A stretch of DNA of 64,000 bases, taken from a virus (taxonomy: Duplodnaviria > Caudoviricetes). Positions 1 to 13,724 of the stretch are shown piece by piece. The position numbers and the translations under genes were made by a program. The notes beneath the pieces were generated by a model. It was not told the origin of the DNA. It worked only from the letters and a program-made list of their open reading frames with translations, and did no database searches. The stretch's first letter is position 1. Each line of letters starts with the position of its first letter. The DNA lies in IMG/VR virus record IMGVR_UViG_3300029288_007060, positions 1-64,000 of that record; one strand, written 5' to 3'.

Positions 1-145
1 CATACGGCAAACCACGAGCCGGATACCAACGCAGGGTTTTGCTCTTCAGAACAGAAGGCATTGCCTCGTGTGCCAAGACCACAGAGTGCTCATCGCGGTA
101 CTCTTTCACCTGGTCGCAAAAATCCTTGAATGACTGTCGGTCCAT
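1..145 (-). CDS. hypothetical protein, runs off window edge (MDRQSFKDFCDQVKEYRDEH...)
   Basis: ATG at 145 preceded by AAGAAAGGAG RBS; frame open to base 1; absent from ORF track. Confidence 0.7.
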   Translation of the reverse strand, partial: MDRQSFKDFCDQVKEYRDEHSVVLAHEAMPSVLKSKTLRWYPARGLPY

Positions 146-167
146 GACTACTCCTTTCTTTGTTAAT

Positions 168-340
168 CCTTCTGCGTTTACACGGACTTAGGACCGTCAA
201 ACTGTGCTTGTAGGCGTGCGTCAACGCCTCGTTAGTTCGGGAGGGGAAGGCGGGAGATTGTTTCACTCCCGTCCTCCCATATTTACTCCCTAGTCGTAGT
301 TGATTTGCACTACGGCCTCTGCACATGTTTGGTCGCATTA
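168..340 (-). ncRNA. twister ribozyme Tw1 with ~135 nt multibranched P3 insertion
   Basis: Minus strand U^AA-UGCG-AC-[P3 CAAAC..GUUUG]-ACGG-UCCUAAGU-CCGU-GUAAA-CGCA-GAAGG; P2 UGCG/CGCA, P4 ACGG/CCGU, T1 CCU/AGG, T2 AC/GU all complementary. Confidence 0.85.
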
Positions 341-474
341 CGGACTGGCATTACCAGCCCTTTGTTCTATCTGTTTGGCCTTGTAGCTATACTCACGGCC
401 AAGTCATTAGTACCCGTCTTTCTGCACTTTGGCATCCGGTTATTAAGGCGTGTGATAGGTTTAAGTGTTTGATA

Positions 475-672
475 CTATTGACCTATTTCACCTCCTTGTT
501 GTAGTAGGACCACATCCTCACACCCACACCTGCATGTGAATATGAGTCTCTCAACCGTTTGTCCTGGCCTGTTAGGGTCAGGTATTCGCACAGGCCGCAT
601 GACGTACTTCGGGATAAAGTACAGGTATTTCGCCTCTATACCACAGCCTTGACAGCGGTATCTGTTTTCCAT
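475..672 (-). CDS. small Cys-rich (CxxC...CxCxC) putative Zn-binding protein
   Basis: ORF track; GGGAAAGG RBS. Confidence 0.7.
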   Translation of the reverse strand: MENRYRCQGCGIEAKYLYFIPKYVMRPVRIPDPNRPGQTVERLIFTCRCGCEDVVLLQQGGEIGQ

Positions 673-685
673 AGTGTACCTTTCC

Positions 686-1060
686 CTAGCTGAGATTCGC
701 TATTACAGAACGAATCCTATCCAGCTTGGCTTGCTCGACGACAGCCAAATCAGGCGTACACCCAGTTTGGTCTGCCGATTCCAGCAAATCATTGATGGCG
801 TTGAGCAGATTGCGACGGTCCTGGAACAGCATGTCCCAAGTACGGCACCATCGCTTATACACCCAAGTGTCCAGCCAGCCTATGGTCCAGCGGAAAACCC
901 AACGCTCACGGAAACTTAGGATTGGACGTCCCGGTGCCCATTCGCCCACTTGCGTTGCCTTATACCGCCAGACAGACTGCGGCCGCCAATAGTTTTTGTG
1001 ATATGGCGGCCCCGGCAACCATTGGAGCACATGTCGAATACGCTCTGCTACTCTTTTCAT
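686..1060 (-). CDS. hypothetical Trp-rich protein
   Basis: ORF track; AGAAAGG RBS directly after Tw2. Confidence 0.7.
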   Translation of the reverse strand: MKRVAERIRHVLQWLPGPPYHKNYWRPQSVWRYKATQVGEWAPGRPILSFRERWVFRWTIGWLDTWVYKRWCRTWDMLFQDRRNLLNAINDLLESADQTGCTPDLAVVEQAKLDRIRSVIANLS

Positions 1061-1074
1061 AGACTTACCTTTCT

Positions 1075-1135
1075 CCCTCTGTTTTTACCCTGGCTTGGGA
1101 CAGGCTAGCGACCTCTAGGTCGCCAGGCAACATTA
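1075..1135 (-). ncRNA. twister ribozyme Tw2
   Basis: U^AA-UGUU-GC-[CUGGCGACC UAGA GGUCGCUAG]-CCUG-UCCCAAGC-CAGG-GUAAA-AACA-GAGGG; matches twister core, T1 CCC/GGG. Confidence 0.92.
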
Positions 1136-1138
1136 CGT

Positions 1139-1285
1139 GTGTTTGGGCCGGTGTAGATACATCAAGGTTATCAGCCTCTCCCACTACTCCGTTTGACCTA
1201 CTCGTGTTGTACCTCCAGGTTGATGACCCTTCGGCATTTTCACTTCCGGCCGACGTTCCCGCTCGTCCTGCTCCTACCCAAACAC
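1139..1285 (-). ncRNA. unknown structured RNA between Tw3 and Tw2
   Basis: 9-bp closing stem GUGUUUGGG/CCCAAACAC, inner stems, no convincing ORF. Confidence 0.55.
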
Positions 1286-1297
1286 TAGAACTCTATG

Positions 1298-1358
1298 CCC
1301 TCTGTTTTTACCCTGGCTTGGGACAGGCTAGCGTCCATTGGCACGCCAGGCAACATTA
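1298..1358 (-). ncRNA. twister ribozyme Tw3
   Basis: Identical to Tw2 except the distal 10 nt of P3. Confidence 0.92.
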
Positions 1359-1439
1359 AGCTAGGCTTTACTTAATCTTTAGGTTATCGGCCAAGCCTAG
1401 AAAAAGCCGATAGAGCCTAACCCTACGGACAGCCGGACT

Positions 1440-1805
1440 TTATACCCGGCTATATTTCGATGCCGGTCCTCTGGACCCGTTCCACACCAACACCTTGCGA
1501 GTGCAAAGATAGTCAACCTCATGCTCAACCAAAGCACGGTCGTAGTCGGCGAGAGACTCGCAAATCTCGCCAATGTTCTTCGGCTCGCACAAGCACACAC
1601 GAATACCACGACGGACTTCTACCCGTTGTCCTTCGGTGTATCTGCTACGCCCTTGGTATGCGTCGGCAGATTGTGCTTCCAGTTCAGCTAACCGTCGTTT
1701 CTCGGCTTGGACCTGTTCGTGGGCGTGTGCCGCTATACGTTCAGCGTCTACAACCGCGATTTTTTGTTGCTTGATAGCTTCTAACAAACGCGGCAAATTT
1801 TCCAT
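1440..1805 (-). CDS. hypothetical protein, N-terminal coiled coil
   Basis: ORF track; GGAAAGGA RBS. Confidence 0.75.
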   Translation of the reverse strand: MENLPRLLEAIKQQKIAVVDAERIAAHAHEQVQAEKRRLAELEAQSADAYQGRSRYTEGQRVEVRRGIRVCLCEPKNIGEICESLADYDRALVEHEVDYLCTRKVLVWNGSRGPASKYSRV

Positions 1806-2197: not shown

Positions 2198-2286
2198 TTC
2201 CCACTCTGCGTTGGCTCATCGGATTCGCCTTTGAGCTACCCAGGCTTGTGACTGGCTATGAGGAATCCCATAGGCCGCATTAGGAA
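2198..2286 (-). ncRNA. twister ribozyme Tw4 (P1, P3 and P5 present)
   Basis: UUCC-U^AA-UGCG-GC-[P3]-CCAG-UCACAAGC-CUGG-[P5 GCUCA..UGAGC]-CGCA-GAGUG-GGAA; T1 CAC/GUG. Confidence 0.93.
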
Positions 2287-3781: not shown

Positions 3782-3877
3782 CCTGTGACTCTGCGTTGGC
3801 TCATCGGACTCGCCTTTGAGCTACCAGGGCTTGTCACCTGCTAATGTCAGACAACAACATTAGGCCGCATTACCAGG
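3782..3877 (-). ncRNA. twister ribozyme Tw7 (P1, P3 and P5 present)
   Basis: CCUG-G-U^AA-UGCG-GC-[P3]-CAGG-UGACAAGC-CCUG-[P5 as in Tw4]-CGCA-GAGUC-A-CAGG; T1 GAC/GUC. Confidence 0.92.
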
Positions 3878-8008: not shown

Positions 8009-8962
8009 TTAAACCTTCAGCAACTCCCCACTGGGTGATTTAGAGAACCATTTGATTTGAGGAAATCTTTCTAACAAATAATTCTCGTACGAGTCTAGAG
8101 TATCGAACATACTTAGTTTTGAGTTTTTGTATAGTCCTATTTTCATTCCATCTAGAATATCTAACTTGGTTACCACTATTTCATCCGGTTGTACTATAGA
8201 TATAGCATAATCTACATCGTCTTCGTTTAGCCAGGTACATTTCCTGGGCCTTCCGGTAGTTGCTCCAAATTCTTTGCCTCTTTCTCTCAATTCCGGAACA
8301 TCGGGAGTATAAGGTGGGCCATCCCCAACTCGAGTTACATATCCCTTCATAACCCCGATTGTTCGCCCAATCTTATGAGCCATACTGGGCATTACAGATG
8401 AGGAGGTAACATAAGGATAATTTCCGTAGTCGACGTCTAACATAATTCCTTGTGCGCCCTCATAAAGAGCTGATTCGGCCCCAAATGGAGGAAGTCCAGA
8501 ATAGACAGTGCACCCTAATTCTTTCTCCACATCAGCTTTGATATTTTCTATCCTGATACCTTTTCTTAATGCCCTATCCGCATACACATAAGCTATTCCT
8601 CTTTTTGTACTACCTATTCCACTACCATCACTATCTTGTTTCAGATGTTTGTCCTGGATAAGGTGTACATTTTTGGAAATATATAATTCTGCCGGATGCT
8701 TCAGCGTCTTTAATTCAACTTTCAGTTCTTCTAAATTGATAGCCATTCCGGCATCTAGTGCTATTTTCTTGCCAAATACTGCTCCAGCTGGCAAATGATG
8801 TAGCTTGTATTCTGTGCCCTCATTATCATAGACTGTGTGGCCAGCATTATTCGATCCGTTAAAACGAACCGACCATTGATAATTGTGTTTCTCACAAAAA
8901 TAGGCAGACACTCTTCCCTTGCCGGTATCGCCATAACTAAGATCGCATATTAACGTTTTCAT
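8009..8962 (-). CDS. purA: adenylosuccinate synthetase (short form)
   Basis: GDTGKG, RFNGSNNAGHT, IGSTKRGI, EGAQG, YPYVTSS, TRVGDGP, EFGATTGRPR, TKLD motifs. Confidence 0.95.
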   Translation of the reverse strand: MKTLICDLSYGDTGKGRVSAYFCEKHNYQWSVRFNGSNNAGHTVYDNEGTEYKLHHLPAGAVFGKKIALDAGMAINLEELKVELKTLKHPAELYISKNVHLIQDKHLKQDSDGSGIGSTKRGIAYVYADRALRKGIRIENIKADVEKELGCTVYSGLPPFGAESALYEGAQGIMLDVDYGNYPYVTSSSVMPSMAHKIGRTIGVMKGYVTRVGDGPPYTPDVPELRERGKEFGATTGRPRKCTWLNEDDVDYAISIVQPDEIVVTKLDILDGMKIGLYKNSKLSMFDTLDSYENYLLERFPQIKWFSKSPSGELLKV

Positions 8963-9300: not shown

Positions 9301-9630
9301 TTATGGTGTATTTCTTATAATCTGTCTAATGCCCTCTTCTCCATCTTTCCTATACGTATCTATTAGAACTATAGCAAAAGCCGCGCTAGTTATATATAGC
9401 CATGTTTTTTCATCGGTTACGTCGCCAAACTTATACATTTTAAACGAAAAGTCTTCATTCTTTTTGTTCTCATACTTGCATCCAATCCTCCACACCCAAT
9501 CTTTTCGTTTTTCCGCTCGTTCAATATCCGCAAAATAACATGGCTTCATATATAAATGATCCATATTTATTTTAGAATTAATGGTAGAGCTGTGGGTTAG
9601 TGTACCGGATTTAATATTAGCAACCTTCAT
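9301..9630 (-). CDS. hypothetical protein
   Basis: ATGA overlap, GAGGAGG upstream. Confidence 0.7.
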   Translation of the reverse strand: MKVANIKSGTLTHSSTINSKINMDHLYMKPCYFADIERAEKRKDWVWRIGCKYENKKNEDFSFKMYKFGDVTDEKTWLYITSAAFAIVLIDTYRKDGEEGIRQIIRNTP

Positions 9631-12637: not shown

Positions 12638-13724
12638 GCGGCGTTCCTTCTGTGACTCCAGCCGCCGTTACCCGGCGCCATACAGCTTTTTCTCGCAACT
12701 CGGCCAAATTACGCGCACCAGCATAACTCAACCCAACTTTAACCGACTGACACAAGCCTTCTACAACTCTGTATGCCGATCGCCCCGTGTATGGAACTTT
12801 AGTGCTTACACCTTCGCTGGGCAAGCCGGCTTTTGATTTATCGAACCATTTTTTTCGTCCTTCTACACTAGCCATACCATGATAATATTTAAAAAGCTGT
12901 CCATTTTCTTCCAACCATTCGCCTGGCGATTCTATGGTACCAGCCAACAGAGACCCAATCATTATGGCATCAGCTCCTATAGCTAAAGCCTTTACTATAT
13001 CTCCACTATATCTTATTCCGCCATCTGCTATCAAAGCTATATTGGGATATTCTTCCTTAATTCTCGCACAGTCCTCTATAGCTGATAACTGCGGAACTCC
13101 GTGACCAGTCACGAGTCTGGTAGTGCAGACAGCCCCAGGCCCTACACCAACGCGCAGAGAATTGGCTCCAGCCGCCGCTAAATCCCGGGCGCCCGCGAGT
13201 GTGCAAACATTTCCGGCCATAATATTAACCGTGGGCCAACGGGCTCGTAAAGCCCTAACCGTATTTATACACAAAGCGTTGTGTCCATTGGCCACATCTA
13301 TACAAATTCCATGGACCCCAGCTTCCATTAGCGCAGCAGCCCGGTCGGAAGAATCTCCTTGCGGCCCTTGAGCTCCCACCGCAGCATAGAACTTTTGTGT
13401 ACAATTAGGCCCCCATGATAAAACTGGGGTGTCGGAGACAGCGTCTGAAAGACGCGCCATAACATTTTTGCACATATTGTATTGATCTTCTATAGACATA
13501 TAGCGATGCAATACGCCAGTGGCGCCCATATCGCACATAGCCACCAACATATCTTCTTCACAAACAGTATTCATTGGTGCTGCCACTATTGGTAGCGGGA
13601 AATCAAAGTCTGGAAGACTAACATTAATTTCTGGGTCTTTTCTGGATTTTATTTCCGAGTGCATCGGCACCAACACAAAATCATCAAATGTATAGGCAGT
13701 TTCCGCATCTTGTAACTTGCTCAT
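12624..13724 (-). CDS. guaB: IMP dehydrogenase / GMP reductase family (no CBS domains)
   Basis: TFDD, PIVAAPM, DVANGH, GVGPGAVCTTR, IADGGI, GMAS, EGV motifs; GAAAGG RBS before ATG 13724. Confidence 0.85.
   Translation of the reverse strand: MSKLQDAETAYTFDDFVLVPMHSEIKSRKDPEINVSLPDFDFPLPIVAAPMNTVCEEDMLVAMCDMGATGVLHRYMSIEDQYNMCKNVMARLSDAVSDTPVLSWGPNCTQKFYAAVGAQGPQGDSSDRAAALMEAGVHGICIDVANGHNALCINTVRALRARWPTVNIMAGNVCTLAGARDLAAAGANSLRVGVGPGAVCTTRLVTGHGVPQLSAIEDCARIKEEYPNIALIADGGIRYSGDIVKALAIGADAIMIGSLLAGTIESPGEWLEENGQLFKYYHGMASVEGRKKWFDKSKAGLPSEGVSTKVPYTGRSAYRVVEGLCQSVKVGLSYAGARNLAELREKAVWRRVTAAGVTEGTPHGKR

Follow-up and report, generated by a model that had tools for sequence, protein, structure and literature searches.

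What a large folded RNA domain is doing inside a phage ribozyme is the question raised by Tw1, one of seven twisters in the 64,000-nt stretch of viral DNA analysed here (the window; positions 1 to 64,000 of IMG/VR record IMGVR_UViG_3300029288_007060). Its core is interrupted by 134 nt in P3, and a sequence-only reading of the window had taken this insert for either a passenger RNA or a natural allosteric module (aptazyme) gating cleavage. What twisters do for bacteria and phages is not yet understood (PMC6765202). The answer we favour, with a probability of roughly 0.55, is that Tw1 is a constitutive twister whose P3 carries an independently folding expansion, retained on the 5' end of the mRNA of an 81-aa downstream gene.

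Tw1, at window 340-164 on the minus strand, is a type-P1 twister in two pieces, with core halves at 340-331 and 197-168 comprising the following elements:

331-340, minus strand: 5' half of the twister, UAAUGCGACC, an identical 10-mer being present in the contiguous twisters of contigs L036-L038; P2, T1 and T2 all paired
Between U340 and A339, minus strand: cleavage site of Tw1, predicted from sequence
182-197, minus strand: P4 hairpin ACGG-UCCUAAGU-CCGU, whose loop holds the T1 partner CCU (192-190) and the T2 partners G187-U186
168-181, minus strand: GUAAA linker, 3' strand of P2 (CGCA, 176-173) and GAAGG with the T1 partner AGG (170-168)

The U-A cleavage dinucleotide lies in a UAA loop (U340-A339-A338) directly 5' of P2, which joins UGCG (337-334) to CGCA through four of four Watson-Crick pairs, while P4 closes an 8-nt loop with the conserved AAG and is followed by GUAAA and GA. 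Both pseudoknots are present in compensated form: T1 pairs CCU with AGG (3 bp) where the consensus has CCC/GGG, and T2 pairs A333-C332 with G187-U186 (2 bp) where the consensus has GC/GC. Similarly, the seven window twisters use four different P2 sequences, every one complementary, and eight different T1 triplets occur across the twisters of this phage, each with its matching complement. Because the Rfam model encodes neither T1 nor T2, these pairings provide an independent check. The architecture of the twister class was reportedly set out by Roth et al. in 2014. Tw1 shares with type-P1 twisters (RF03160) the UAA cleavage loop, the 4-bp P2, the P4 with its 8-nt AAG loop, T1 and T2, the position of P3 between T2 and P4, and an intergenic location near phage genes, but departs from the RF03160 model in its CCU/AGG and AC/GU pseudoknots, in having no P1 pairing between its immediate flanks, and in a branched P3 of 134 nt as against about 20 nt. 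By its architecture Tw1 belongs to the twister class, with self-cleavage itself predicted; it is a variant of a known ribozyme class and is unique so far.

At the Rfam gathering score, zero matches were obtained in the window and none of the twister copies was found. In E-value mode, six minus-strand twister-P1 matches appeared there (55 to 30 bits), and for Tw1 the 3' half only was recognised and was matched with an incorrect 5' half taken from the insert (24.8 bits). This alternative 5' half (CUAACGAGGC, 238-226) was rejected, with just two of four P2 pairs formed. The RF03160 gathering cut-off of 67.2 bits, which is an operational threshold and not a structural feature, was not reached by Tw1, and the best match found in this phage scored 55.1. 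A rule-based scan requiring all of the P2, P4, T1 and T2 pairings recovered Tw1 with a 134-nt P3 gap, and gave zero matches in the reversed genome and zero in 40 shuffles. The suspicion that covariance searches might miss Tw1 was thus borne out, and standard searches of this kind miss twisters bearing a large P3 domain, as Tw1 shows. Discontinuous hammerheads, which were reportedly described in mammalian 3' UTRs by Martick et al. in 2008 with their halves split by a long insertion in a peripheral stem, escape standard motif searches in the same way, though there the insertion runs to hundreds of nucleotides with no defined compact fold, in another ribozyme class and host.

The insert is predicted to form a compact domain, built of the following parts:

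198-331, minus strand: P3 domain, 134 nt, from MFE folds, with C331 shared with the 5' half
321-331 and 198-207, minus strand: closing stem of P3 in the MFE fold, 5+5 bp, pairing CAAAC (331-327) with GUUUG (202-198) and UGUGC (325-321) with GCACA (207-203), with a bulged A326
295-314, minus strand: hairpin H1, 6 bp, CGUAGU/ACUACG, with an 8-nt loop
239-290, minus strand: long arm H2, 5+6+6 bp, with a 7-nt bulge, a 1x1 mismatch and a 9-nt loop
212-229, minus strand: hairpin H3, 6 bp, AGGCGU/ACGCCU, with a 6-nt loop

All 10 closing pairs have a pairing probability of at least 0.96 in a ligand-free prediction, and beyond them the three hairpins form a four-way junction, which is the same in the MFE fold of the 134 nt alone and in that of the 191-nt ribozyme. 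Every P3 pairing listed in the sequence-only reading is present in these folds, and the junction is exactly the one it drew. The domain is also exceptionally stable, at -54.8 kcal/mol (z = -5.6), with none of 200 shuffles folding as well and none of 3,158 other 134-nt windows sampled in the 158-kb record being as stable; GC-matched 134-nt windows have a mean of -37.6 (sd 5.3). The H2 arm sets three GGGAG words opposite CUCCC-type words, and the insert holds several GGGAG-type words despite the record-wide depletion of GGGAG and CTCCC (34 and 87 found versus 154 expected in 158 kb). The longer word GGGAGG is likewise depleted on both strands of the record (6 and 7 versus 39 expected). The extreme stability and clean four-way junction make the domain look like more than a neutral expansion and favour some specific function, a point against the reading preferred here. 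The next most stable 134-nt segments, near 144,157 (-54.7 kcal/mol) and 126,707 (-53.8 kcal/mol) of G000 and at about 13,124-13,257 of the window on the minus strand (-52.5 kcal/mol), may be further structured RNAs.

With the patterns used, no homologue of the domain was detected in GenBank phages, IMG/VR, GTDB genomes or the metagenome collection. The insert was found in GenBank phages by neither megablast nor blastn, has no second copy in the 158-kb record or its 20-kb extension, and a 21-mer of the Tw1 subfamily gave zero matches in genome contigs and viral contigs. Two pattern matches among viral contigs were discarded as chance, one to the split core (L035, coding-like sequence) and one to H2 (L041, a GC-rich hairpin in another phage). 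An Rfam covariance search of the insert (251-nt query, E <= 10) identified no riboswitch or other family, returning chance miRNA-hairpin matches and the mis-joined twister match. The genes around Tw1 were equally isolated: no relatives were found for the 65-aa, partial 48-aa, 81-aa, 124-aa and 317-aa neighbour proteins, and an exhaustive HMMER search with the 81-aa protein returned itself and two unrelated long repeat proteins only. As the flanking genes are orphans, no orthologous site was located. Four contigs (L042-L045, from a 246,754-bp ENA contig and a Logan contig) carry identical 124-aa and 137-aa neighbour proteins; L042 and L043 match the window at 100% over 4,000 and 1,104 nt, and so offer no variation to compare. 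Other origins of the insert were considered and set aside: no promoter or terminator was predicted across window 1-1500, the H1, H2 and H3 dyads are each unique in 158 kb and are not repeated DNA operators, and a MITE-like insertion is at odds with a single copy that has merely 5 bp of stem beyond a minimal P3.

The core of Tw1 does have close counterparts, which supply the strongest evidence that it is a twister. In metagenome contigs L036-L038, a contiguous twister carries a P3 consisting of a 4-bp stem with a GAAA loop (12 nt), and scores 49.5 bits (E 1.5e-8) against RF03160. The 10-nt 5' half of Tw1 is letter-identical in these contigs and its 37-nt 3' half (199-163) is 100% identical, while the base of P3 differs by two compensatory pairs (ACGC/GCGU versus AAAC/GUUU in Tw1). 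The contiguous twister shares the T1/T2 variant of Tw1 and, as there, is followed by a second twister after about 300 nt, but the flanking sequence and genes are unrelated to those of this phage. With both halves identical around a short P3, the ribozyme core does not need the 134-nt domain, and Tw1 and L038 make up a natural pair with and without it. A further member of the Tw1 subfamily, in L039, has a P3 of at least 60 nt that runs off the contig end and adjoins a hammerhead type III match (221-276, minus strand, 37 bits).

This pair bears directly on the allosteric half of the earlier proposal, in which ligand binding to the domain would control assembly of the core and cutting. Multi-helix junctions are typical of aptamers, and Tw1 is an outlier among about 21 copies in this phage; moreover, variable domains on natural twisters have been proposed as regulatory, and engineered twisters become ligand-dependent through aptamers grafted on their stems (PMC5052635). 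Tw1 resembles these devices in having a folded extra domain on a peripheral stem and in its 5' UTR position next to a ribosome-binding site (RBS). However, the engineered versions use known aptamers and short selected communication modules on P1 or P5 of a type-P3 scaffold (PMC5052635), whereas Tw1 has a 10-bp connector and its domain matches no known aptamer family (Rfam, E <= 10), so that a ligand response appears unsupported. The connector is predicted to form unaided (p >= 0.96), in contrast to the short, weak communication modules of working aptazymes, no alternative pairing between domain and core is predicted, no conserved junction nucleotides are demonstrable, and other contigs have the identical core as a unit whose P3 is just 12 nt long. 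The allosteric gate thus found no support and is considered very unlikely. Given the strong connector and the lack of predicted domain-core pairing, Tw1 is instead read as constitutive.

How such a ribozyme would act can be outlined from its surroundings. On the minus strand, the order from 360 to 143 is hairpin, G341, 5' half, insert, 3' half, 9-nt spacer, RBS and AUG, with the flanking elements located as follows:

342-360, minus strand: hairpin of 8 bp, with one nucleotide (G341) between it and the cleavage-site U, predicted in the 256-nt fold and all prefix folds
143-158, minus strand: translation start region of the downstream gene, with the ribosome-binding site GAAAGGAG at 158-151 and the AUG at 145-143
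2-145, minus strand: partial 81-aa downstream gene (codons 1-48), truncated by the record start; full length in L043 960-1205

In prefix folds, the three hairpins of the domain appear in turn, and P2, P3 and P4 become the MFE structure once the 3' half has been added. In the course of transcription, 340-331 would emerge first and the three hairpins would then fold locally; on emerging, the 3' strand of the closing stem (207-198) would clamp the domain and bring 197-168 beside the 5' half, after which P4, P2 and the T1/T2 pseudoknots would form and the chain would be cut between U340 and A339. The 342-360 hairpin would become the 3' end of the upstream cleavage product, while the whole ribozyme, including the domain, would remain on the 3' product, which would serve as the 5'-hydroxyl leader of the 81-aa gene's mRNA, about 10 nt ahead of its RBS. 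In published structures, P1-T1-P2-T2-P3 form a coaxial stack with P4 angled off and P3 optional (PMC6154101); judging from this stacking, the tip of P3 should face outward, leaving room for added sequence without steric conflict. For 3' fragments of twisters, the 5' end is reported to lie buried within the fold (PMC8782182). The domain itself would most likely provide this mRNA with a 5' end that is bulky and nuclease-resistant, and might also act as a protein platform. Cleavage activity, constitutive behaviour and any stabilising role are predictions from these models, and we infer that the P3 domain is a lineage-specific expansion at a permissive site and not a gate.

A recent insertion into or expansion of P3 might alternatively have crippled Tw1, leaving a disabled relic whose core has yet to decay. 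Tw1 is a unique outlier, has no relatives showing persistence, and cannot form P1, its flanks CCG (343-341) and AUU (167-165) being unable to pair; the MFE alternative to P1, AGUCC/GGAUU, would consume T1 nucleotides. However, the window copies Tw2 and Tw3 are likewise without P1, which is reportedly dispensable in mini-twisters, and in Tw1 the 342-360 hairpin may substitute for it. A second sign of impairment is the prediction that part of the core pairs instead with the first codons of the downstream gene. In a fold of 256 nt including the coding region, CGGUCC (196-191) pairing with GGACCG (143-138), the latter running from the start-codon G into codons 2-3, is favoured over P4 plus P2 in a nested-only model. 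As this pairing competes with P4 and P2, constitutive cleavage would depend on fast co-transcriptional folding and on the pseudoknots; the complementarity could be chance or could have a post-cleavage translational effect. Against decay, the 10-bp stem closing the domain restores the geometry of P3, all core pairings and both pseudoknots are intact and identical to those of an independent lineage, and large P3 domains accompany intact cores in several other phages. We regard a relic as unlikely.

The RNA structure could also be incidental to a protein. An 82-codon frame (338-90), starting at the AUG within UAAUG, is open through the entire insert and would encode a small basic protein, and since Tw1 and the L038 version differ in length by a multiple of three, the latter keeps this frame open for 54 codons. 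However, the frame has no ribosome-binding site, its AUG lies within P2, it shares 56 nt, in a different frame, with the start of the genuine downstream gene, and its product has no Pfam match. In other twisters the same AUG frames stop after 1-33 codons, and the sole peptide in common is the one encoded by the conserved RNA core. A coding role is accordingly barely credible.

The remaining alternative to a simple expansion is the passenger half of the earlier proposal, in which P3 would act as a docking bay and the ribozyme would trim and present a functional RNA module, such as a protein site or decoy, a mimic of tRNA shape, or a long arm processed by an RNase III-type enzyme. The comparison of P3 sizes among twisters from viral and metagenome contigs provides a precedent for this. 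Most P3 gaps were 5-23 nt, but larger ones were found at 47 nt (L022), 52-53 nt (L040 and the second twister in L036) and 89 nt (L020), and in nine viral contigs (L013-L015, L018, L021, L024, L025, L028 and L032) a gap of 83-97 nt holds a cloverleaf at the same P3 position. ARAGORN called this insert as tRNA-Ile(GAU) in seven of the nine, the inserts of L013 and L015 being degenerate:

L014 305-451, minus strand: twister with predicted nested tRNA-Ile(GAU)
L018 2267-2414: twister with predicted nested tRNA-Ile(GAU)
L021 7356-7502: twister with predicted nested tRNA-Ile(GAU)
L024, L025, L028 and L032: further twisters with predicted nested tRNA-Ile(GAU)

The L014 insert has an Rfam tRNA score of 42 bits, and the predicted nested tRNAs show compensatory changes in the acceptor stem and, for L013 (which has no ARAGORN call), in the anticodon stem as well. 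No description of a tRNA nested in the P3 of a twister was found in the literature searched. The contigs concerned are phage sequences of 100-120 kb in which these twisters fall within tRNA arrays, and ROOL and drum RNAs occur in some of them as well. The L020 twister (9430-9575 of a 177-kb viral contig) has a P3 predicted to form a three-way junction. In layout it follows this phage, with a GC hairpin before the cut site and an RBS right after the core, and its sequence and genes are unrelated. With P3 domains of 47-97 nt, some of them branched, in several phages, large P3 domains are a recurring feature of phage twisters; they are not rare, with sizes between 47 and 134 nt and a predicted tRNA among them, and the Tw1 domain is the largest twister P3 seen in this analysis. 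Twister-like elements in L009 (2740-2830, minus strand) and L010 (4430-4520), with a CCU/AAGU loop, were rejected as relatives of Tw1, being without P3; in these, the sole AGG able to pair with the loop lies within the downstream ribosome-binding site.

Tw1 and the tRNA-bearing twisters are alike in carrying a four-way-junction domain (about 96 nt in the latter) at the P3 tip of an otherwise canonical phage twister, and the Tw1 domain has cloverleaf topology, with its three hairpins set on a closing stem, exceeds all other sampled segments of the record in stability, and concentrates the GGGAG/CUCCC words that the genome otherwise avoids. The branched P3 domains of L020 and of a 58-nt copy in this phage point in the same direction. 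However, whereas the nested tRNAs are recognisable, recurrent and covarying, the Tw1 insert is unique and is not tRNA-like in sequence: its linkers are 4-9 nt and its middle arm 52 nt, its loops (GCAAAUCA, UGAAACAAU and UGACGC) are without T-loop or D-loop motifs, ARAGORN found no tRNA gene in window 1-1738, and neither a tRNA nor any other Rfam family was matched at E <= 10. The domain is also a single copy in the 158-kb record and 20-kb extension, its dyads are unrepeated and it has no homologue found, and only one of about 21 twisters has such a domain, in a sample dominated by this phage's own array. The passenger half of the proposal is thus compatible with the data and has a precedent in the predicted nested tRNA-Ile, and we hold it possible but tentative. 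The broader version, that the P3 tip of phage twisters is a general docking bay and the Tw1 domain a new functional ncRNA (a protein platform or decoy, or a sensor), is doubtful. Decorated copies without a function beyond cleavage would be a measure of what a compact ribozyme tolerates at P3; if they do act beyond cleavage, they would be natural counterparts of the ribozyme-plus-module devices of synthetic biology.

The array to which Tw1 belongs extends well past the window. The IMG/VR 'provirus' record begins partway through the ribozyme array and truncates a gene, and in L044 (ENA ERZ27247363 k141_2996160, in which window base 1 is position 8602) the array continues for at least 12 kb beyond the window, making it about three times larger than the window shows. 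The rule-based scan counted about 21 twisters in 16 kb (L044 4700-20200), all co-oriented with small orphan genes; cmscan confirmed 14 of the scan's twisters beyond the window and added two more. Of the P3 gaps in this phage, 19 measure 12-26 nt, one measures 58 nt and that of Tw1 measures 134 nt, such that one phage combines about twenty plain twisters with two decorated ones. The sequence-only reading had described the other six copies as having a simple P3 of 17-23 nt and Tw1 as the only one with an AC/GU T2 pair. Both statements hold within the window, where those six P3s measure 16-21 nt, but neither extends to the whole phage: beyond window base 1, one further twister has the AC/GU pair, and the copy next but one from Tw1 (L042 4386-4562, = L044 8928-9105, region) has the 58-nt P3, in which two hairpins form a three-way junction. 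This copy was not detected by cmscan.

Directly upstream of the 58-nt-P3 twister, a tRNA-Lys(UUU) with an encoded CCA precedes U|AAUGCGGCC, the start of the ribozyme. As the CCA abuts this U, the predicted twister cut would fall one nucleotide after the CCA end, a layout that recalls the theta (HDV-like) ribozymes said to adjoin phage tRNAs. In addition, eight of the roughly 21 twisters of this phage have an insertion of 22-49 nt at the P5 position, P5 being reported in only about 1% of annotated twisters (PMC6154101):

Window 2198-2286 and 3782-3877: twisters with a P5-position insertion
L044 11857, 14340, 14815, 17220, 17463 and 19612: twisters with a P5-position insertion
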